A stretch of 33,627 nt of DNA from a phage (GCA_012551655.1 GCA_012551655.1_3034.1); one strand, 5' to 3'; positions 5,643 to 28,992 are shown, counted from the stretch's first letter. Notes: generated from the letters alone by a model not told the origin. A program made the numbers and translations.

Positions 5643-6761
5643 ATGGAAAAATTTATGGCAGAGTTTGGACAAGGATATGTCCAAACGCCATTTTTATCGG
5701 AAAGCAATTCAGTAAGATATAAAATAAGTATAGCGGGTTCTTGCTCGCTTTCTACTGCAGAAGGACCATACGTTAAATTTCAGGATAATCCTGTTGGAAG
5801 TCAAACATTTAGCGCAGGACTTCATTTAAGAGTTTTTGACCCTTCTACAGGAGCATTAGTTGATAGTAAGTCATATGCTTTTTCGACTTCAAATGATACT
5901 ACATCAGCTGCTTTTGTTAGTTTCATGAATTCTTTTTCAAACAACAGACTTGTTGCTATATTAACCAGTGGAAAGGTTAATTTTCCTCCTGAGGTAGTAT
6001 CTTGGCTAAGAGCCGCGGGAACGTCTGCTTTTCCATCTGATTCTATATTGTCAAGATTTGACGTATCATATGCTGCCTTTTATACTTCTTCTAAAAGAGC
6101 TATTGCATTAGAACATGTTAAACTAAGTAATAGAAAAAGCACAGATGACTATCAAACTATTTTAGATGTTGTATTTGATAGTTTAGAAGACGTTGGAGCT
6201 ACAGGATTTCCTAAAAGAACATACGAAAGCGTTGAGCAATTTATGTCAGCGGTTGGTGGAACTAATAACGAAATTGCACGTTTACCAACTTCATCCGCGA
6301 TAAGTAAACTCTCTGATTATAATTTAATTCCTGGCGATGTTCTTTATCTTAAAGCACAGCTATATGCTGATGCCGATTTACTTGCGCTTGGAACTACAAA
6401 TATATCTATCCGTTTTTATGATGAATCGAATGGATATATTTCTTCAACACATGCTGAGTTTACTGGACAAGCTGGGTCATGGGAATTAAAGGAAGATTAT
6501 GTAGTTATTCCAGAAAATGCAGTAGGATTTACGATATATGCACAAAGAACTGCCCAAGCAGGTCAAGGAGGCATGAGAAATTTAAGCTTTTCTGAAGTAT
6601 CAAGAAATGGCGGCATTTCAAAACCTGCTGAATTTGGCGTCAACGGTATTCGCGTTAATTATGTCTGTGAATCCGCTTCGCCTCCAGATATAATGGTACT
6701 TCCTACACAAGCATCGTCTAAAACTGGTAAAGTGTTTGGGCAAGAATTTAGAGAAGTTTAA
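5643..6761 (+). CDS. 35: Long tail fiber hinge connector gp35 (372 aa)
   Basis: 372-aa ORF as in T4 gp35; SD agagg before ATG; position between 34 and 36. Confidence 0.9.
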   Translation: MEKFMAEFGQGYVQTPFLSESNSVRYKISIAGSCSLSTAEGPYVKFQDNPVGSQTFSAGLHLRVFDPSTGALVDSKSYAFSTSNDTTSAAFVSFMNSFSNNRLVAILTSGKVNFPPEVVSWLRAAGTSAFPSDSILSRFDVSYAAFYTSSKRAIALEHVKLSNRKSTDDYQTILDVVFDSLEDVGATGFPKRTYESVEQFMSAVGGTNNEIARLPTSSAISKLSDYNLIPGDVLYLKAQLYADADLLALGTTNISIRFYDESNGYISSTHAEFTGQAGSWELKEDYVVIPENAVGFTIYAQRTAQAGQGGMRNLSFSEVSRNGGISKPAEFGVNGIRVNYVCESASPPDIMVLPTQASSKTGKVFGQEFREV

Positions 6762-6766
6762 ATTGA

Positions 6767-6793
6767 GGGAGCCTTCGGGTTCCCTTTTTCTTT
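6767..6793 (+). terminator. Rho-independent terminator after gene 35
   Basis: GGGAGCC-TTCG-GGTTCCC stem-loop followed by TTTTTCTTT. Confidence 0.6.
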
Positions 6794-10740: not shown

Positions 10741-10745
10741 TAAAA

Positions 10746-10759
10746 GGGCCTTCGGGCCC
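10746..10759 (+). other. GGGCC-UUCG-GGCCC RNA hairpin at the 37-38 junction (no U-tract)
   Basis: Perfect 5-bp GC stem with UUCG tetraloop 6 nt after the 37 stop, followed by SD ggagg and the 38 ATG. Confidence 0.5.
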
Positions 10760-10770
10760 TGGAGGTTTAT

Positions 10771-11595: not shown

Positions 11596-12252
11596 ATGGC
11601 AGCACCTAGAATATCACTTTCGCCCTCTGATATTCTATTTGGTGTTCTAGATCGCTTGTTCAAAGATAACGCTACCGGGAAAGTTCTTGCTTCCCGGGTA
11701 GCTGTCGTAATTCTTTTGTTTATGATGGCGATTGTTTGGTATAGGGGAGATAGTTTCTTTGAGTACTATAAGCAATCAAAGTATGAAACATACAGTGAAA
11801 TTATTGAAAAGGAAAGAAATGCACGCTTTGAATCTGTCGCCCTGGAACAACTCCAGATAGTTCACATATCATCTGAGGCAGACTTTAGTGCGGTGTATTC
11901 TTTCCGCCCTAAAAACTTAAACTATTTTGTTGATATTATAGCATATGAAGGAAAATTACCTTCAACAATAAGTGAAAAATCACTTGGAGGATATCCTGTT
12001 GATAAAACTATGGATGAATATGCAGTTCATTTAAATGGACGTCATTATTATTCCAACTCAAAATTTGCTTTTTTACCAACTAAAAAGCCTACTCCCGAAA
12101 TAAACTACATGTACAGTTGTCCATATTTTAATTTGGATAATATCTATGCTGGAACGATAACCATGTACTGGTATAGAAATGATCATATAAGTAATGACCG
12201 CCTTGAATCAATATGTGCTCAGGCGGCCAGAATATTAGGAAGGGCTAAATAA
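11596..12252 (+). CDS. t: Holin T (218 aa)
   Basis: MAAPRISLSPSDILFGVLDRLFKDNATGK... with one N-terminal TMD and large periplasmic domain; size and sequence as recalled for T4 holin; follows 38. Confidence 0.9.
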   Translation: MAAPRISLSPSDILFGVLDRLFKDNATGKVLASRVAVVILLFMMAIVWYRGDSFFEYYKQSKYETYSEIIEKERNARFESVALEQLQIVHISSEADFSAVYSFRPKNLNYFVDIIAYEGKLPSTISEKSLGGYPVDKTMDEYAVHLNGRHYYSNSKFAFLPTKKPTPEINYMYSCPYFNLDNIYAGTITMYWYRNDHISNDRLESICAQAARILGRAK

Positions 12253-12525
12253 TTATTTGTTCGTATACATCTCTAGATATCGATATACACCCTCAAAACC
12301 CTCGTTGAATTCGTCGATGAGGGTTTTCTTATCTTCCTGAGTTAATTCAGAAACAATTTTACGGAATGAATTCTGATTTAATTTTCTACCTTCATGCGTT
12401 ACTCCAATCTCATTCAGAAATGCAATAAAATTAGCACGATTTTCAACAATATCTTCTCTGGAAAATTTAATCAAAATAGACGCAACAGTAATAATTTCAC
12501 GAACTGTATCAATATTTTTATTCAT
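12253..12525 (-). CDS. asiA: AsiA anti-sigma70 factor (90 aa)
   Basis: MNKNIDTVREIITVASILIKFSREDIVENRANFIAFLNEIGV... matches recalled T4 AsiA; 90 aa. Confidence 0.9.
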   Translation of the reverse strand: MNKNIDTVREIITVASILIKFSREDIVENRANFIAFLNEIGVTHEGRKLNQNSFRKIVSELTQEDKKTLIDEFNEGFEGVYRYLEMYTNK

Positions 12526-15374: not shown

Positions 15375-15417
15375 GAAAAAAAAAATTTAAATAAAAAAGG
15401 GAGAGCCGAGGCTCTCC
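15375..15417 (-). terminator. Rho-independent terminator (minus strand) downstream of 52 and the 49-aa ORF
   Basis: Minus-strand GGGAGAGCC-(uc)-GGCUCUCCC stem followed by UUUUUUAUUUAAAUUUUUUUUUU. Confidence 0.7.
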
Positions 15418-15423
15418 CTAAAA

Positions 15424-17204: not shown

Positions 17205-17360
17205 TCAACTATTTTTAGAACCAATGTACGCGAATAATGATAAAATCGCTAATACGCCCTGAGCAGATGCTTGCAAAAATACTGAAGTTTCTCCAGTTAT
17301 TACTGTTCCGATGCATAAAAAGAACCAACAGAAAAAGGCTATACCGTGAACAAGTTTCAT
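17205..17360 (-). CDS. Ac-like small membrane protein, copy 2 (51 aa), paralog of copy 1
   Basis: ATG at 17360 with GAGGA SD; MKLVHGIAFFCWFFLCIGTVITGETSVFLQASAQGVLAILSLFAYIGSKNS; shares F-x-CW...SVF-Q-A-AQG pattern with copy 1; not in the ORF track. Confidence 0.55.
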   Translation of the reverse strand: MKLVHGIAFFCWFFLCIGTVITGETSVFLQASAQGVLAILSLFAYIGSKNS

Positions 17361-17367
17361 ATTTTCC

Positions 17368-17448
17368 TCACTGGCGTCCGAAGACGCCTTTAGTTTTAAG
17401 ATTGTTACGATAGAACTGCATCACATGTTCGTTATGGAAATTACTCAT
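17368..17448 (-). CDS. stp: Stp peptide (26 aa)
   Basis: Reverse translation gives [26 protein letters not shown], which I recognise as T4 Stp; ATG overlaps the ndd stop by 1 nt; 3' end contains a GGCGUC-UUCG-GACGCC hairpin. Confidence 0.8.
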
Positions 17449-17938: not shown

Positions 17939-17960
17939 GGCCGCATGAATACACGCGGCC
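17939..17960 (-). other. Intergenic hairpin GGCCGC...GCGGCC upstream of ndd
   Basis: 6-bp GC stem with 10-nt loop; no U-tract. Confidence 0.4.
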
Positions 17961-18863: not shown

Positions 18864-19123
18864 AGTTCAATCTCAGCGATTTTCATTTCATTACTATTAA
18901 TAGCCTCTTTAAGACTATCTGAAAGAATTACATTCCAGTGGTCATTCATATGACCATTAACTAAGCGTGTAATTTCTTCAGGAGTTGAAAAATAAGGCTG
19001 ATCAGACTCCCAATGCGATAATTCTAAGCGAGTATAAATCATGCCTTCATCATCGCTAGAATATTCAACTGACACAAACTCATCAGTTATTTTATGTTTA
19101 GCGTAATAAAATTTAAATTTCAT
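18860..19123 (-). CDS. Hypothetical 87-aa protein
   Basis: Track ORF 18860..19216 trimmed to ATG at 19123 after SD GGAGGAG: MKFKFYYAKHKITDEFVSVEYSSDDEGMIYTRLELSHWESDQPYF... Confidence 0.55.
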   Translation of the reverse strand: MKFKFYYAKHKITDEFVSVEYSSDDEGMIYTRLELSHWESDQPYFSTPEEITRLVNGHMNDHWNVILSDSLKEAINSNEMKIAEIEL

Positions 19124-19149
19124 TTTTACTCCTCCGTAGCTGATAGTTG

Positions 19150-19179
19150 TATAGTACCACGGTCCTTGTGGTATGTAAA
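19150..19179 (-). promoter_or_regulatory. T4-type early promoter
   Basis: GTTTAC (19179-19174), 18 bp, TACTAT (19155-19150), leader tatcagctacggaggag. Confidence 0.5.
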
Positions 19180-19197
19180 CCATTTTGTGAAATTTTT

Positions 19198-19755
19198 TTA
19201 AATGGAAAGATACCATCCGTTGTAGTTGCTTTTTCTTACAACCTTACGAAGGTCTTCTCTGTCACCGATGAACTTCGGAGTGTACTGGATGACACCTGGA
19301 TGAATTTCTTTAGTGTTGAATATAATTATACAGTCAGCGACTTGATGATTTAGAATGGGCCCTAGATTTATTCCAGAACCATATGGATACTCTCCGCTGC
19401 ATCCTGTTGTTACCGAAATCCAACGTGAGTCAGTTTGATGTGTCTTAACTTCTACACGAAGCCCGCAGTATCTTGGATGCGCCAATACATCCCATGCGTA
19501 TGTATACGGGTCATTAACATCCTCTTGGCCTTTATTGACATATCCGCTTAGCCAATCTGCTACAAAAAATTCTGCGTACACAGCAATACGGCATCTTTCG
19601 ATAACTTCTGCCTTATCCTGATTTGGGTTTTGTTTTAAAGAGTATCTTGCAGTATTAGCAATTTTGACCTTCATTTCACTAGTCAAGTCACTGTTCGATA
19701 GGGTAAATGTCGGAATCTGAAATAGTCTCTGTAGCCCCGGATTCGTTTTCTGCAT
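19198..19755 (-). CDS. denB: Endonuclease IV DenB (185 aa)
   Basis: 185 aa as T4 DenB; AGGAAAG SD before ATG at 19755; position between ndd cluster and rIIB. Confidence 0.75.
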   Translation of the reverse strand: MQKTNPGLQRLFQIPTFTLSNSDLTSEMKVKIANTARYSLKQNPNQDKAEVIERCRIAVYAEFFVADWLSGYVNKGQEDVNDPYTYAWDVLAHPRYCGLRVEVKTHQTDSRWISVTTGCSGEYPYGSGINLGPILNHQVADCIIIFNTKEIHPGVIQYTPKFIGDREDLRKVVRKSNYNGWYLSI

Positions 19756-20017
19756 TTAAACTTTCCTTTTTACCGCTGAGATAAGCGTTATACACTTTAA
19801 GAGTACCGTAGTAAATTCGGTCATTTTCATCTAAAGACACACGGTCAAGTTCATCAAGTTCCTTTTTATCCATGACTATAACATCATTGCAATAAAGAAA
19901 CCCAAGTTTTTCGTGACCAAACTCAAATTTATTACAGTACACAATATTAGCGTGATGATTTCCATGCAGTTTAATCTCTTTTATGTCGGAATCACCGATA
20001 TTCATACAATAAATCAT
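19688..20017 (-). CDS. Hypothetical 109-aa protein; 3' end overlaps denB by 68 nt
   Basis: ATG at 20017 with aaggaaaa SD directly after a terminator-like hairpin; acidic low-complexity C-terminal tail. Confidence 0.5.
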   Translation of the reverse strand: MIYCMNIGDSDIKEIKLHGNHHANIVYCNKFEFGHEKLGFLYCNDVIVMDKKELDELDRVSLDENDRIYYGTLKVYNAYLSGKKESLNAENESGATETISDSDIYPIEQ

Positions 20018-20033
20018 AATTTTTCCTTAAAAC

Positions 20034-20052
20034 AAAAGGGCCGAAGCCCTTT
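20034..20052 (-). terminator. UUCG-loop hairpin with flanking T-tracts (partial terminator)
   Basis: AAAGGGC-CGAA-GCCCTTT on plus (UUCG loop on minus); T-rich both sides; between the 64-aa and 109-aa ORFs. Confidence 0.5.
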
Positions 20053-20055
20053 ATT

Positions 20056-20250
20056 TTACTTGAATTGTGCAATTCTTTTCTCTAGACATTCAGCATAAGA
20101 TTTCATTGAGATGAACTGTGAAAGCAGCAGTTCTTGCTCAACTGCACTAACCGTTAGAAACTTTGTGCTTTCTAAAAATTTGCTCAGTGCATTAATTTTG
20201 AGCATTAATTGATCGTATTCTTCTTTTACTCGTGCTTGATAACCTAACAT
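20056..20250 (-). CDS. Hypothetical 64-aa protein between rIIB and denB
   Basis: ATG at 20250 with AAGGAAAA SD directly after the rIIB 3' hairpin; predicted helical (MLGYQARVKEEYDQLMLKINALSKFLEST...). Confidence 0.5.
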   Translation of the reverse strand: MLGYQARVKEEYDQLMLKINALSKFLESTKFLTVSAVEQELLLSQFISMKSYAECLEKRIAQFK

Positions 20251-20267
20251 AATTTTCCTTAATATGA

Positions 20268-20285
20268 TAAGGGCCGAAGCCCTTA
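20268..20285 (-). other. UUCG-loop hairpin spanning the rIIB stop codon
   Basis: TAAGGGC-CGAA-GCCCTTA on plus; minus-strand RNA GGGC-UUCG-GCCC. Confidence 0.5.
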
Positions 20286-21221
20286 TTTAAATTGTTCAGT
20301 AACGTCTTCAACTACTTCGTATTGGCAGGTACGCATTTTAGCATCGTTGTAATCAATCGGAATTGATACTACATCACGTGGATGTACTTTAACTTTTACA
20401 ACTCGGCTGGTTGAACTGCCAAAGTGACGAATATAAGATTTAGAACACACATGCAGACCACGAGAACAAGTTTGTGTATCATCGTCATTCACACGAGTAC
20501 GCGGCATTTTAACTACTTTACCAGGACTGTTATCAAAGGTGTTTGAGTGACAGTCAAAGTAGTTGTCACGAACTACTTTCCAAGCATAGAAGTAACCATC
20601 TTCTGTAATTTCAATATCGTTTGCTACCAAGAAATCAAAGAGTCGAGATACCGCTTTCTGGCTTGGGTTTTCCAGCAGATTTTCCAAGAACGGAAAATAA
20701 AATTCAAAGTTTTCACCTTTTTCCATCGAATCGAGAATACGATCAACTAAACCAGACCGTAATTCGATATTTTGATAGAACAAGCTTCCGCCTTCAATTC
20801 GAACATCGCCGGAAATATATTTTTCAACAGCGCGACGAACATTAATTTTTTGTGCCGCTTCTTCCAACTTATCTGCTACAAGCAGATTAAGAATTTCCTG
20901 GAAGTTTGAATGAGTATTAGGAGTTGCGTTATAAGTTACACCGTCAACAGTAATTGAAATGAATTTTTTAGATGCATTCCAAATAATGTCAGATTTAGCA
21001 ACTGGAGCAATAACTGCATCGCTATTAACTTTAATTGTAATATCACCGCTAATAGTAACTTTAGAGCGTTTAGCTTCTTCAGCATTTTTCAAAACACGAC
21101 GAATTGTGTCAACCGATACACCTTGCCAATCAGCCAATTCCTGTTGGGTGTAATTACCGCTTGAATACAATTTAACAATTTCAGCTTGTTCGTTTTTGGT
21201 CAGGCATTTAATATTGTACAT
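20283..21221 (-). CDS. rIIB: rIIB protein (312 aa)
   Basis: 312 aa as T4 rIIB, immediately downstream of the 725-aa rIIA; MYNIKCLTKNEQAEIVKLYSSGNYTQQELADWQG... Confidence 0.9.
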   Translation of the reverse strand: MYNIKCLTKNEQAEIVKLYSSGNYTQQELADWQGVSVDTIRRVLKNAEEAKRSKVTISGDITIKVNSDAVIAPVAKSDIIWNASKKFISITVDGVTYNATPNTHSNFQEILNLLVADKLEEAAQKINVRRAVEKYISGDVRIEGGSLFYQNIELRSGLVDRILDSMEKGENFEFYFPFLENLLENPSQKAVSRLFDFLVANDIEITEDGYFYAWKVVRDNYFDCHSNTFDNSPGKVVKMPRTRVNDDDTQTCSRGLHVCSKSYIRHFGSSTSRVVKVKVHPRDVVSIPIDYNDAKMRTCQYEVVEDVTEQFK

Positions 21222-21232
21222 AATTTTCCTTA

Positions 21233-23410
21233 TTAGGCCGCAAGGGCCTTCATAGTTTTAGCGATTTGGGAAACTTCATCATCACTCAAAGAGTTACGAT
21301 AACCGATGAAGTCGGAAACAATACGGAATTTCTTGGTAAACTCAGCAACCATTTTATCACTATTTTTTGAAGCATTACGTGATAATTCATCAAAGAGATT
21401 AGTTACTGTCCAGATATCATGACCGATGGTATCTTTTCCACCATTGAAATATACACCGCGTAATGAACTAACCATATTACCAAGTCGTGTATATTCTTCA
21501 GAAACTTCATCTGTACTGAAGTACTTCATCATAAAATCTAGTTCAGGATACTTGATAATTTTATCAATATATCGTTGAGCTGAACTTGAATAACCTACAT
21601 ACTTATCATAATCTACATCATCAAAAGCATCTACATATAAATCACGCAAAGCTTCAAAAATACATTGGCACTGACCAAGCTCTTTTACCTTTTTCTGCAA
21701 AAGCGGACGAATAACATAAAATTCATTAATGCCAATAAGATTAGCCATACGAATCAAAATATTCATAGATGGATGACAAAGCGATGTAGTACCATCCATA
21801 GAGAAAATATCAGAACGATGCATATACGCTACATAACCAGTAATTTCATCTGCTTCTGACGTAAGTGTAAATAGTTCCTCTTTTTCCCATCGTCCATCTT
21901 TAATTTCAAATTTAAATGCTGTAGCAGCTTTAGGACGAGGAGCTTTACTTTTAACTACCTTTGGAATATAGCTTTTAACTAAAGCTTCAATTTCTGACAA
22001 ATAATGAATGTTAACTTCATCACTTTCAAACATTGCCATAATATCAGGTAGTAAATCAATCTGCGATTCTACTTCCGGATTAATAAACAGAAGACGCTCA
22101 TTGTGATGAATATTTAAAGTGTTATTAAATTCACTATCATCTAACGCATGCGCTAATCCACGGACAATATTAACACGATTTTTAATATTATCAATAACGA
22201 TATTAATTTTTGTTGTATTAATACCAAACAGACGATAACTTGATGCAACGGCTGAAGTTTCATGGCTTTGCTTAATACGCTTCAGTCGAGGGTCAAGATT
22301 TACTTCATACACAACCCCTGCATTGCATAGCTTACTGTCAGGTTCAAACATGCTCTGCATTTTCTTATATGACAGATTTTTAGTCGTGAATTTGACTGAA
22401 TTACTAATCATATAATCTCGAGCAGAATACCCCATCTTCATTAATTCACGATATGTGTGACGAGGAGATGTAGATTCTTTAAATCGTTTTACATCTTCAT
22501 TAAATGCTTTCTCACTGAGTTCTTTAACTCGTTCAATGATATTTTTACGAGTACGATCATCCAGTGAAAGAGCCTCACGAGATGGAGCAATATCAAGTGA
22601 ACCCATTGGAAACTTAATGTAATTCACTTCATTGCGAATGCTTAGCCAGTTACGGTCTCTAATAACACCATCGATAGGATAAACAATACCGCCGTAGATA
22701 GCATATAATCCACCACGATCAGGCCAGTATCTTTCTGGATTTACACCGTAATAGTCATCAAAATCTGGAAAATAATCAATTTCGCGGTCAAGACCATTAA
22801 TGATAGCCAAATCTTTGAATGGTCGCATGATATAAGAAACTTCATAAGCAAAGTTTCTAAAGTCTTTTTCTTCAACTGGAACTACAATTTCAATACCAGT
22901 TTTATCATCTGGACCCATTTCTTTTACGAATGTAGGTTTAATCTGTGGACCATCACCATCCATATAAGCTACATAACCACGAATTTCACCTTTATGATAC
23001 GAAGTAATACTAAATGTATCAGTATAACTAAACGGAGATTTAGAACCTAAACCAAATCCGCCAATGAAATCGTTAGATTCAGCCTTAGATGAACTGAAGT
23101 ATGAATTATACAACCCAGGAGAATTATCATCACCTTGAATATCAAAATCACTCATACCCGGACCAAAATCTCGACAAACAAATCGTGGGTCTAAACGTCC
23201 AGGAATTTGTATGATAAATTTTTCAGGATTTCCATTAAGTGCATGAGCATCAATCATGTTAGTAATCAATTCACGGACTACTGCGCGAATCTTGTTTGTA
23301 TACAAATCAGATGATAGAATTTTAAATACTTTAGGATTTGCTGCGATGCTAAATGCTTTTGATTTAGAACCATTACCAAGAATTGTTTCTTTTTCAGTGG
23401 TGATAATCAT
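21233..23410 (-). CDS. rIIA: rIIA protein (725 aa)
   Basis: 725 aa as T4 rIIA; GHKL-like N-terminal region (IDAHALNG...DFGPGM); followed by rIIB with 11-nt gap. Confidence 0.9.
21236..21250 (-). other. GGCC-loop-GGCC hairpin encoded within the last codons of rIIA
   Basis: GGCCGCAAGGGCC palindrome overlapping the ...MKALAA* coding end. Confidence 0.4.
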
Positions 23411-23649: not shown

Positions 23650-23679
23650 ATTATACCACATCCTTGTGGTAAAGTAAAC
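23650..23679 (-). promoter_or_regulatory. T4-type early promoter for rIIA.1-rIIA, overlapping the 3' end of gene 39
   Basis: GTTTAC (23679-23674), 18 bp, TATAAT (23655-23650). Confidence 0.55.
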
Positions 23680-25496
23680 TACTGGCTCATCCATTCTTTA
23701 CGAAGGTCAGCATTATCTCCCATGAGCATTTCAAAAAGCTCTTTCCAGTTCTCAGGAAGTTTAACAACATCATATACTGGATTTTGAATCATCTCACGAT
23801 ATTCAGATTTTTCCAAAGAGCCAAGTCCTTTAATATAACGGATGCTATGTTTAGGTAGAGCATCTTTGGCACTCTCATATTCAGCGACTGTATAAAACCA
23901 TTCTTGTTTTTTACCGACCTGAGCGATGATTACAGGAGTTTTGACAAAGCGAATTCGTCCTTGCTCAAACAATTCTGGCCAATTACTAAAAAATCCAAGC
24001 AGAGAAGGATAAATGCTTCCTAGACCATCATGGTCAGCATCAGTCATAATAGCAATATTATGATAATTCAAGTTTTCAGCTTTTTCACCGAGAACTAATC
24101 CAGTGATTGCGCAAATATCAAATAGTTCTTTGTTTTTAAGCATATCAGCATATGACATACCCCAACTATTAAGAACTTTACCACGCAATGGATAACCACC
24201 ATGAAGTTCTTTATCACGAACATCAATAAGATATCCGATAGCCGAATCACCCTCAGTCAAGAAAAGAGTCGTGTCAGCATCTTTACCACAAAGATTCGCT
24301 TTAATATGTTTATGAACCTTAGCTTTAGAAGCCTTTTTAGCTGCTTTTGTTTCTGCTGCTTTTTCTGCTGCCAATTTACGAGCCAAAGCAGCTTCAATAA
24401 TCGGCATTAGAATTGCTTCATTATTTAGAATAGCACGTGAAATCTTTTTAGCATCAAGCTGAATATGACTACGGATTTCACCAAATGGAGAAGTCAAACG
24501 CTCTTTAGTTTGAGAATCAAATCGCATGTTTTTCATATCACGAACAAACATAACGATAGTCAAACATTCTTTAACACGTGCTTTAGTTACATCAATTTTG
24601 AATTTACGTTTGATTTGTGGAATAAGGTCTTCACAAATATCATCCATAACACAGTCAATGTGATGGCCACCATTCTTAGTGTGAATGTTATTCACATAAG
24701 TTAATTGACGAAATCCATCCGGTGAACGACCAACCGCAATAGAACAATTTTCTTGTTCTTGAACAATAGCATGTTCATCATACTGTCGTGCATATTTCTT
24801 AAAATTACCCTGAACCTTTTTACCATTAAAGGTAAATTGAATATCAGGATAAACAACAGCAAGTGTCTGGAGACGATCTAGTGTAATGTCAAGATAAACT
24901 TGGGACAGCTCATTAGTTTCAAATGACATAAAATCAGGAATGAAAGTAACACGAGTTCCTTTCCATTTTCCTGGAATAGTTTCCCATGATTTATTTTCCA
25001 TGCCATTTGAACAACGAACTACAATATTATTTTGACCATCGCCAGTTTCACCAACAAACATCACAGAAAAAATGTTAGTTAAACTAGAACCAACACCGTT
25101 CATACCGCCGGTGACGCGTTCTTTATCATCACCGAAGTTACCACCTGCTTTTGGAATAGTCCATGCAGCAACAGGACCAGGAATTTCTTCACCGGTAGGT
25201 GTTTTAACCATCGCTTGTGGAATACCGCGACCGTTATCTTCAACTGTTACTTGATTGTTTTTAATAGTAACGTTAATTTTATTTGCGAATTTAAACTTAG
25301 TACGAATACCTTCATCTACTGAGTTATCGATAATTTCATCAATAAGCTTAACAAGACCAGGTACATACTGAACACTTTCCCATTTACCAAACAGAAAGCG
25401 CTCATGCATTTCATTAGCAGAAGAACCAATGTACATGCCGCTACGCTTTTTGATATGTTCAATATCGCTCAGAATTTTAATTTCATTCTTAATCAT
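23679..25496 (-). CDS. 39: DNA topoisomerase II large subunit gp39, unsplit (605 aa; GyrB-like ATPase plus Toprim)
   Basis: Track ORF begins at GTG; ATG at 25496 with GAGGA SD. Motifs EIIDNSVDE and DNGRGIP (GHKL ATPase), EGDSA and DADHDG (Toprim). Single continuous ORF. Confidence 0.9.
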   Translation of the reverse strand: MIKNEIKILSDIEHIKKRSGMYIGSSANEMHERFLFGKWESVQYVPGLVKLIDEIIDNSVDEGIRTKFKFANKINVTIKNNQVTVEDNGRGIPQAMVKTPTGEEIPGPVAAWTIPKAGGNFGDDKERVTGGMNGVGSSLTNIFSVMFVGETGDGQNNIVVRCSNGMENKSWETIPGKWKGTRVTFIPDFMSFETNELSQVYLDITLDRLQTLAVVYPDIQFTFNGKKVQGNFKKYARQYDEHAIVQEQENCSIAVGRSPDGFRQLTYVNNIHTKNGGHHIDCVMDDICEDLIPQIKRKFKIDVTKARVKECLTIVMFVRDMKNMRFDSQTKERLTSPFGEIRSHIQLDAKKISRAILNNEAILMPIIEAALARKLAAEKAAETKAAKKASKAKVHKHIKANLCGKDADTTLFLTEGDSAIGYLIDVRDKELHGGYPLRGKVLNSWGMSYADMLKNKELFDICAITGLVLGEKAENLNYHNIAIMTDADHDGLGSIYPSLLGFFSNWPELFEQGRIRFVKTPVIIAQVGKKQEWFYTVAEYESAKDALPKHSIRYIKGLGSLEKSEYREMIQNPVYDVVKLPENWKELFEMLMGDNADLRKEWMSQ

Positions 25497-25523
25497 CACT
25501 TATCCTCGTTTGGTTTCGGGAAT

Positions 25524-25548: not shown

Positions 25549-25566
25549 AAAGGCCCGAAGGCCTTT
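25549..25566 (-). other. AAAGGCC-UUCG-GGCCUUU hairpin between the lipoprotein gene and the gene 39 promoter
   Basis: 7-bp stem, UUCG loop on the minus-strand RNA; short U-run only. Confidence 0.45.
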
Positions 25567-27970: not shown

Positions 27971-28470
27971 TAGCTTACACGAACATTAATCACTGCGCTG
28001 CGAGGAACTACAGAGTACTCTCCAGCATGAACTACGTTCAGAAGTTCAACACCATCTTCAATCCACTGATCAGTTACCCAACCGCCAATCGGATTCGCGA
28101 ATGGACGACGAATATAAACTGCCTTACACAACAAATCAGTCGGGTCTTCAATTTTTTCAACTGGTGTTACATACATAGAAACTAAATCCATATCAATATG
28201 GGATTTTTCTTGTTCTTCTTTTTCAATTTCTGTCAATAAATTGAAATCTTCTTCATAGATGATGAATGATGATACCCTTCCATAATAGTTTCTAATTTCC
28301 ATGTACACTGTACCAATGAGAATTCCGCTATTAACACTAATAACAGTAAAAGGATATCCGCCAGTTGTACCAAGAAGTTCCCAAAACTTGCTATCAGTCG
28401 TATTCGACATTGTCTGGAAATCAATTTCAGATGGTTTTTTCATTTGATACGTAGTATTAATTTTAATCAT
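27970..28470 (-). CDS. Hypothetical 166-aa protein, C-terminal domain paralogous to the MotB-like ORF
   Basis: ATG with AAAGGAAA SD; C-terminus GWVTDQWIEDGVELLNVVHAGEYSVVP vs YITDQWVEDGVKLYNAVFLGTYKVIP in the neighbour. Confidence 0.55.
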   Translation of the reverse strand: MIKINTTYQMKKPSEIDFQTMSNTTDSKFWELLGTTGGYPFTVISVNSGILIGTVYMEIRNYYGRVSSFIIYEEDFNLLTEIEKEEQEKSHIDMDLVSMYVTPVEKIEDPTDLLCKAVYIRRPFANPIGGWVTDQWIEDGVELLNVVHAGEYSVVPRSAVINVRVS

Positions 28471-28479
28471 AATTTTCCT

Positions 28480-28992
28480 TTAATCTAAGGTAATAAAGCC
28501 TTTTAATTCGGCATGCGATTTGCGAAACATTACTTGATGCCCACCAATGATAACTTGATCATCTGGCACTTCATAAATCGCAATGTACATTCCACGATCT
28601 TTTAAGTCTTCACGCTCTTCTCGAGTAAACCATCTCATTATATCATATTCACTAGCGAAAGCAAAATGATATAATGCAATAAACCACAATGGAATATAAT
28701 TTTCAATTCGTGAATAATCTTTATTCCATTTAGTTTTAATAGCATCATTAGCATTTTCAACTAATAACTTATCATCGTGCGGAATAGGAATACTTTCATG
28801 ACTTTCATAATTATCGCTATGATGATGAAATGACGATGAATTAATACCGCAAAATTTTAGCCAAGTTCGAGTTTTCATAGAATCAAATCCACGATAAGGA
28901 GTTGATTGAACACATAACTCTTGCCTAATTTTCATTATACCACTATCATCATTTAATGCGCTAAACGATGATTCAACACGATAAATTTTCAT
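28480..28992 (-). CDS. Hypothetical 170-aa protein
   Basis: Track ORF 28480..29031 trimmed to ATG at 28992 after SD GAGGA and promoter leader: MKIYRVESSFSALNDDSG... Confidence 0.55.
   Translation of the reverse strand: MKIYRVESSFSALNDDSGIMKIRQELCVQSTPYRGFDSMKTRTWLKFCGINSSSFHHHSDNYESHESIPIPHDDKLLVENANDAIKTKWNKDYSRIENYIPLWFIALYHFAFASEYDIMRWFTREEREDLKDRGMYIAIYEVPDDQVIIGGHQVMFRKSHAELKGFITLD

Follow-up and report, generated by a model that had tools for sequence, protein, structure and literature searches.

C(UUCG)G hairpins at the gene junctions of a T4-like phage segment: a corrected inventory and their likely roles in mRNA

The UUCG tetraloop was discovered in T4 mRNA and is exceptionally stable (PMC4371310). 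Phage intergenic regions, above all those of T4, are rich in sequences with the pattern (X)2-8CUUCGG(Y)2-8 (Tuerk et al. 1988, as summarized in PMC8948821); the hairpins that they form stop reverse transcriptase, and their known functions vary. Intergenic stem-loops of T4 have also been described as "like transcription terminators," often with a UUCG tetraloop (PMC1702504). In one T4 case, a hairpin ahead of gene 38 cuts a 22-nt spacer to 5 nt and is required for translation (PMC3014915, section 29). A further set of stem-loops, the promoter-early stem-loop (PeSL) cassettes, mediates shuffling in other T4-like phages (PMC2839356, PMC4122927).

Here, we analyzed a stretch of phage DNA of 33,627 nucleotides (GCA_012551655.1; the window), which is a Tequatrovirus (T4/T2-like) segment with the T4 gene order. 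A megablast search with positions 19000-22000 as the query found 270 phage records in which 80% or more of the query matches at a single location, and the majority of these are Tequatrovirus with 95-97% identity. When T4 proteins were translated from the annotated T4 record and mapped onto the window, identity to T4 was mostly 95-100% among the mapped window proteins. The plus strand carries, in order, rnh, 34, 35, 36, 37, a T2-type gene 38, and t; the minus strand carries asiA, arn, motA, motA.1, 52, ac, stp, ndd, denB, denB.1, rIIB, rIIA, rIIA.1, and an unsplit gene 39, then dexA, dda, srd, and modA. Gene 39 (23679-25499, minus strand) is one open reading frame (ORF) of 606 amino acids, and both the mobA/60.1 insertion and the 39/60 split are absent. 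Because gene 39 is unsplit, the window lacks the translational-bypass hairpin of T4 gene 60, which is itself a CUUCGG hairpin (T4 2834-2857). Directly after stp lies an ORF of 51 amino acids (17205-17360, minus strand) that has 45% identity to the T4 Ac protein and resembles an ac paralogue; T4 does not have one at that position.

A sequence-only reading of this DNA had listed eight hairpins with UUCG loops (or CGAA on the other strand). We looked for such structures in three ways: we listed exhaustively all TTCG loops flanked by complementary arms, searched for GC-clamped hairpins, and scanned folding energy in sliding windows. The results were concordant. A hairpin is present at all eight coordinates, but the loop is UUCG, with C:G as the closing pair, at only six of them; the hairpin at 15398 has a CUCG loop, and the one at 21236 has a loop of CUUGC (Table 1). 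The predicted free energies of the six UUCG hairpins range from -10.7 to -15.1 kcal/mol. In the folding check suggested by the earlier reading, 21236 was not supported, since 62 of 200 shuffled sequences folded equally well. The UUCG hairpins have modest single-site z scores (-1.2 to -2.9), as a short GC block can fold even when its sequence is shuffled. Across the window, CTTCGG occurs 19 times against 7.1 expected, and six C(UUCG)G hairpins have stems of 6 bp or longer, where chance would give 0.07 (2000 dinucleotide shuffles; maximum, 2). Their stems of 6-9 bp fall within the arm length of the class described by Tuerk in 1988 (arms of 2-8 nt, G-U pairs allowed). A scan of the whole window against Rfam at the gathering score returned no matches to any curated RNA family.

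Table 1. Hairpins in the window. The first number of each pair in the coordinates is the name used in the text. dG is predicted (kcal/mol); z is from shuffling; d is the hairpin/U-tract discriminant and serves for ranking only; gap is the distance in nucleotides from the upstream stop codon to the hairpin.
Coordinates	Strand	Stem and loop	dG	z	d	Gap	Location	Downstream sequence
6765-6786	+	GAGGGAGCC-UUCG-GGUUCCCUU	-15.1	-2.8	+32	+3	between gene 35 (stop 6759-6761) and gene 36	U-tract UUUUUCUUU, then late-promoter motif TATAAATA before gene 36
10745-10760	+	AGGGCC-UUCG-GGCCCU	-12.3	-1.2	-30	+4	past gene 37 stop	no U-tract; GGAGG (10762-10766), gene 38 ATG (10771)
11671-11702		32-nt near-perfect palindrome	about -17, either strand				in holin gene t	
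12295-12327	+	14-bp hairpin	-17.4				about 43 nt past the end of t	
15398-15419	-	9 bp, CUCG loop	-20.0	-5.2	+55	+4	past motA.1 stop	UUUUUUAUUU
17373-17388	-	GGCGUC-UUCG-GACGCC	-11.5	-2.9	-50		within the last six stp codons (GGC GUC UUC GGA CGC CAG = GVFGRQ; stop 17368-17370); 12 nt upstream of the next ORF's ATG	no U-tract
17939-17960	-	GGCCGCGUG-UAUU-CAUGCGGCC	-17.9				between ndd.1 and ndd	UUGGAG, no U-tract
20035-20052	-	AAAGGGC-UUCG-GCCCUUU	-13.6	-2.6	+12	+3	past denB.1 stop; 17 nt before ORF109 ATG	UUUUGUUUU
20267-20286	-	AUAAGGGC-UUCG-GCCCUUAU	-11.9	-2.7	-22	-4	5' arm holds rIIB stop (20283-20285); 16 nt before denB.1 ATG	weak U content (UUAUCAUAUU)
21236-21248	-	GGCC-CUUGC-GGCC (4-bp stem, 5-nt loop)	-8.0	-0.57	-55		within the last rIIA codons	
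25549-25566	-	AAAGGCC-UUCG-GGCCUUU	-10.7	-1.8	-13	-1	overlaps gene 39.1 stop by 1 nt; ends 52 nt before gene 39 ATG	UUUAGCUUUAU, overlapping AGCTTTA, 12 nt, TATAAT

The UUCG lies on the mRNA-sense strand of the flanking genes in all six window hairpins. For comparison, we rebuilt the whole T4 genome from five pieces and counted C(UUCG)G hairpins with stems of at least 4 bp; 21 of the 23 found are in the sense orientation (binomial p = 7e-5), and no stems in the set are shorter than those of the other two, which are antisense. Because palindromic DNA would favor neither strand, the bias points to selection at the level of RNA. Antisense terminators, with CGAA loops and T-rich tails (10760-10745 and 17373-17388), are unlikely to be a selected function, since UUCG is sense biased by 21:2 in T4. 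The hairpins are also fixed relative to stop codons. The sequence-only reading had placed them within a few bases of stop or start codons, which agrees with gaps of -4 to +4 nt from the stop codon in five of six window hairpins and with the position of the sixth in the last codons of stp; those five are intercistronic or overlap the stop codon. In T4, 14 of 20 hairpins begin -4 to +6 nt from a stop codon, and the distance to the next start codon varies widely (4-93 nt). As in the Tuerk class, then, the window hairpins are mainly intercistronic and lie on the transcribed strand of a T4-type phage. From sequence features and conservation, on which all our functional assignments rest, we consider it highly likely that the window hairpins are T4-type C(UUCG)G hairpins that work at the RNA level and have several different jobs. 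Small GC-rich stems with an extra-stable UUCG cap would act in the mRNA at or just after the stop codon of the upstream cistron.

Some of these jobs appear to be transcription termination. A consensus terminator scan found a sense-strand hairpin followed by a T-run at three sites (15419-15398 on the minus strand, 6765-6786 on the plus strand, and 20052-20035 on the minus strand). The same three were the only ones of the eight scored to have a positive value in a d'Aubenton-Carafa-style (1990) hairpin/U-tract discriminant, which we computed with modern energy parameters and used for ranking only. The earlier reading had credited just 6765 and 15398 with a U-tract and the look of a terminator; 20035 belongs with them. 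The three sites score as intrinsic (rho-independent) terminator-like, 25549 is borderline, and 10745, 17373, 20267, and 21236 do not combine a GC-rich hairpin with a U-rich tract directly after it. We infer that the hairpin at 6765 is an intrinsic terminator after gene 35, that the one at 15398 is a strong intrinsic terminator after motA.1, and that the one at 20035 closes the rIIA.1-rIIA-rIIB-denB.1 block, possibly as a bidirectional terminator. At each site, the hairpin and U-tract would end a transcription unit, and two of the three (6765 and 15398) directly precede the promoter of the next gene. A literature search for genome-wide T4 3'-end maps (Term-seq, cappable-seq) found no usable ones.

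At three junctions (35/36, 37/38, and upstream of gene 39), the hairpin also occurs in distant relatives and is much older than the one at rIIB/denB.1. The T4 35/36 hairpin differs from that of the window by one stem base, and the arrangement of hairpin, U-tract, and TATAAATA is kept down to 41% gp36 identity. Relatives have four different UUCG-capped stems at this junction, as well as UUUG, UUAU, GAAA, and GCAA loops. In a set of 11 distinct variants, pairing holds in 97% of cells, five of seven pairs have changed on both sides, and the covariation score is matched by 0 of 500 shuffles. Upstream of gene 39, the hairpin-site sequence in T4 is identical to that of the window, as it also is at stp. 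Phages with 72-80% gp39 identity have a hairpin, UUUUU, and TGCTTTA located 49-53 nt before the gene 39 ATG, with loops of UUCG, UACG, UUAG, UAAC, GCAA, or CUAGU; four of seven stem pairs covary, and again 0 of 500 shuffles match. A MAFFT alignment of this region was out of structural register, and fixed-length segments of 7+4+7 nt were used in its place. The hairpins at both junctions were chosen by folding and aligned in loop register, and the covariation counts therefore lean toward structure; fixed genomic position is the independent argument. Loops in relatives often switch among tetraloop classes of special stability (UUCG, UACG, and GNRA), and UUUG, UUAG, CUCG, and triloops also occur, indicating that UUCG is favored and not required. 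Collectively, this comparative evidence points to the 35/36 and gene 39 upstream hairpins as conserved terminator-then-promoter modules.

At the second of these modules, the sequence after the 25549 hairpin overlaps AGCTTTA, which resembles a MotA box with one mismatch, and AGCTTTA-12-TATAAT is predicted to be a MotA-type middle promoter for gene 39. The hairpin is probably a weak terminator or attenuator just ahead of this promoter, in which case gene 39 could be reached either by read-through past 25549 or by fresh initiation. Some lineages keep the MotA box upstream of gene 39 without the hairpin.

The hairpin at 15398 is likewise followed by an early-type promoter, here for motA (TTTACA-17-TACTAT, 15365-15337). 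T4 and the window differ at this terminator only in two central loop bases, which are TC in the window, GA in T4 (about 15700) and one relative, and TT in another relative. GA and TC are reverse complements, as would be produced by a loop inversion between near-identical phages. In one relative, a deletion takes out the U-tract together with the -35 region of the motA promoter.

Three other structures in the window are separate from the UUCG set. The strong non-UUCG hairpin between ndd.1 and ndd is annotated as a stem_loop in X75802 and was absent from the earlier reading. The 14-bp hairpin beyond holin gene t sits within the convergent asiA coding sequence, which is on the opposite strand, and may be a terminator of late t transcripts. 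Gene t itself contains a 32-nt near-perfect palindrome (Table 1).

The remaining UUCG hairpins, at 10745, 17373, and 20267, have no U-tract (U-tract scores, 0.3-2.4) and lie 10-16 nt upstream of the next start codon. They are most likely very stable, nonterminating structures near the 3' end of a cistron. As such, they would block 3'-to-5' exonucleases acting on the upstream cistron, and they would prevent sequence farther upstream from base pairing with the ribosome-binding site next to them. Because the hairpins are anchored to stop codons and not to start codons, such a 3'-end role is favored at these three sites, and a role in RNA stability or processing, as the sequence-only reading had proposed for hairpins of this kind, is plausible. 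RegB processing at GGAG was rejected as a general partner of the hairpins, since GGAG follows only the hairpin at 10745, in a late transcript.

The main alternative for these three sites, possible though we would not bet on it, is that hairpins lacking a U-tract serve chiefly in translation and either organize the downstream ribosome-binding site, like those of T4 genes 38 and 25, or uncouple neighboring cistrons. The 37/38 junction bears most directly on this idea. The hairpin there adjoins the Shine-Dalgarno sequence of gene 38, and at 13 of 13 T2-type gp38 loci a GC hairpin ends directly against GGAG, never against a U-run, even though its loop varies (UUCG, CUCG, UUAG, and tri- and pentaloops) and one locus has a C-G to G-C swap. 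This invariant contact keeps the translational reading alive, as does the observation that window hairpins end 10-17 nt ahead of the next ATG. T4 gene 38 is unrelated to the T2-type gene 38 of the window, and T4 has its own, homologous-looking CUUCGG hairpin at 37/38 (GAGGGGCUUCGGCCCUUC), the one needed for translation, which lies between the Shine-Dalgarno sequence and the AUG (PMC3014915, section 29). The order in T4 is GGAG, hairpin, and AUG; in the window, however, it is hairpin, GGAGG, and AUG. The 10745 hairpin thus does not separate the Shine-Dalgarno sequence from the start codon, and since GGAGG follows it at normal spacing to the AUG, this hairpin bridges no split ribosome-binding site. 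In addition, T4 hairpins track the upstream stop and not the next start, contrary to what a translation element would suggest.

A 15-nt core, GAGGGGCTTCGGCCC, is common to the T4-type (T4 11620-11650) and T2-type (window and relatives) 37/38 junctions, and its flanks, the C-terminal part of gp37 and gene 38, are nonhomologous between the two types. One possibility is that the 37/38 hairpin marks the boundary at which gene 38 modules are swapped; another is that this motif simply recurs.

A second alternative is that every hairpin, with or without a U-tract, is a terminator or pause site and that together they grade read-through from immediate-early to delayed-early genes. T4 delayed-early expression does rely on read-through (PMC2988021), automated annotation of MK373781 calls the homologues of both 20267 and 20035 putative transcriptional terminators, and the hairpin upstream of gene 39 has a full U-tract in relatives. 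This alternative is nonetheless unlikely, because the hairpins at 10745, 17373, and 20267 have negative discriminant values along with their low U-tract scores, the 17373 hairpin lies within coding sequence, and GGAGG comes straight after the 37/38 hairpin in every relative.

Anchoring to stop codons makes a more specific idea testable, namely, that CUUCGG hairpins are translation-gated attenuators. Most hairpins start within about 5 nt of a stop codon, so a ribosome on the stop would cover the 5' arm. Under tight coupling of transcription and translation, the hairpin would not form and RNA polymerase would continue into the delayed-early gene that comes next; if the two were uncoupled, transcription would stop or the RNA end would be sealed. 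We regard such gating as distinctly unlikely, but if true, it would be a cis-acting explanation for the protein-synthesis dependence of T4 delayed-early RNA, which has long been debated (PMC2988021).

The RNA-level reading also has to be weighed against one in which the hairpins are DNA-level palindromes, that is, recombination or indel hot spots or PeSL-like cassette boundaries. The two cassettes on either side of denB.1 share about 83% identity across some 48 nt, GAGGGGCTTCGGCCC is present in both types of 37/38 junction between nonhomologous flanks, and stem-loop cassettes mediate shuffling elsewhere in the T4-like phages (PMC2839356, PMC4122927). The orientation of UUCG toward the mRNA strand in T4 and in the window speaks against this reading, as does the lack of an early promoter at 20035 and 20267. 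The nearby indel boundary of ORF109 lies about 40 nt downstream of the hairpin and not in it. We thus consider a primarily DNA-level role very unlikely; a role of the hairpins as microhomology for module swaps, such as the exchange of gene 38, is less likely than the gating described above.

ORF109 (19688-20017, minus strand) encodes 109 amino acids matching Pfam DUF7418 (E = 5e-36); its position is between denB.1 and denB, with a 68-nt overlap at the denB start, and T4 and several relatives retain only its first 40 nt or so. We tested and rejected a model in which two near-identical repeats of hairpin and ribosome-binding site delimit denB.1 as a cassette, given that distant relatives keep a hairpin-free denB.1 overlapping rIIB and that the ORF109 breakpoint is outside any hairpin. 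These relatives have 51-53% rIIB identity, and their rIIB runs into the denB.1 homologue with a TAATG overlap; the rIIB/denB.1 hairpin is therefore lineage specific and dispensable. Among close relatives, 14 conserve both the 20035 and the 20267 hairpins, with UUCG changed to UUUG in two. An initiation string, AAGGAAAATTATG, is identical before denB.1, rIIB, and motB.1 (20248-20260, 21219-21231, and 28468-28480, minus strand), with three exact occurrences and one with a single mismatch against 0.2 expected.

The two hairpins that flank denB.1 are imperfect in the old T4 reference (NC_000866, AF158101, and X75802; T4 19683-20013), in which one G is missing from the 5' arm at rIIB/denB.1 and one C is missing from the 3' arm of the hairpin that follows denB.1, the latter annotated as a stem_loop in X75802. 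Resequenced T4 (MT984581) has GGGC-UUCG-GCCC at both sites, exactly as in the window, and about ten further T4 records resemble it (99.1% identity, +2 nt). The missing stem bases in the 1990s reference are probably gel band-compression errors and would then hint indirectly at the unusually high thermal stability ascribed to CUUCGG stems. Gel compression is the artifact by which CUUCGG hairpins were first noticed.

An origin of the hairpins by chance, as palindromes that happen to arise in an AT-rich genome, is refuted for the six UUCG hairpins and 15398 and is almost certainly wrong in general, given that 0 of 2000 shuffles reach six hairpins and that it would leave unexplained the sense bias, the constant position at stop codons, and the covarying stems of relatives; it fits 21236 only. 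That stem is invariant in close relatives and absent in distant ones, the site sequence at rIIA/rIIB is identical in T4, and it is probably just coding sequence, indistinguishable from chance.

The class of hairpin at these known positions is already known; the specific sites are annotated in public T4-family records, and the subject has been textbook material since 1988. What our analysis adds is a corrected site list, in which six of the eight are UUCG hairpins, one is a terminator with a CUCG loop, and one is a chance stem, and a prediction from sequence that separates terminating from nonterminating hairpins.

Set against described systems, the hairpins at 6765, 15398, and 20035 resemble the intrinsic terminators of Escherichia coli and its phages: their GC-rich stems (7-9 bp) have 4-nt loops, lie just past a stop codon, and are followed by five or more U residues within 8 nt. 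Unlike those terminators, the hairpins at 10745, 17373, and 20267 lack a U-tract, the U-tract at 25549 is interrupted, and hairpins of both the window and T4 are unusually near the stop codon (-4 to +6 nt). PeSL cassettes (PMC2839356, PMC4122927) likewise consist of stem-loop terminators among small early genes, and 15398 has a layout in which a terminator is followed by an early-type promoter; 20035 and 20267, by contrast, are not followed by such a promoter, and no indel breakpoint was found in the hairpins (the ORF109 boundary was examined). The split Shine-Dalgarno/AUG hairpins of T4 genes 38 and 25 (PMC3014915) are similar in that a CUUCGG hairpin occupies the 37/38 junction, with a core, GAGGGGCUUCGGCCC, that it shares with relatives of the window phage, and differ in that the window GGAGG is 3' of the hairpin, at a normal 4-nt spacing from the AUG. 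The closest match is the CUUCGG class of T4 itself (Tuerk 1988, PNAS 85:1364), which has the same C(UUCG)G, complementary arms, intercistronic location, and placement on the mRNA strand. The sequence-only reading had called these hairpins a T4 hallmark, and the proteins of the window, which are 96-100% T4-like, the same junctions in T4, and the literature class all bear this out. Comparison of positions with T4, which that reading had also suggested, places hairpins at the same sites (35/36, stp, denB.1, rIIB, and 39.1/39 among them) everywhere except 37/38, where each phage has a CUUCGG hairpin of its own. Nothing substantive separates the window hairpins from the T4 class; the hairpin at 37/38 simply precedes the Shine-Dalgarno sequence of a T2-type gene 38.
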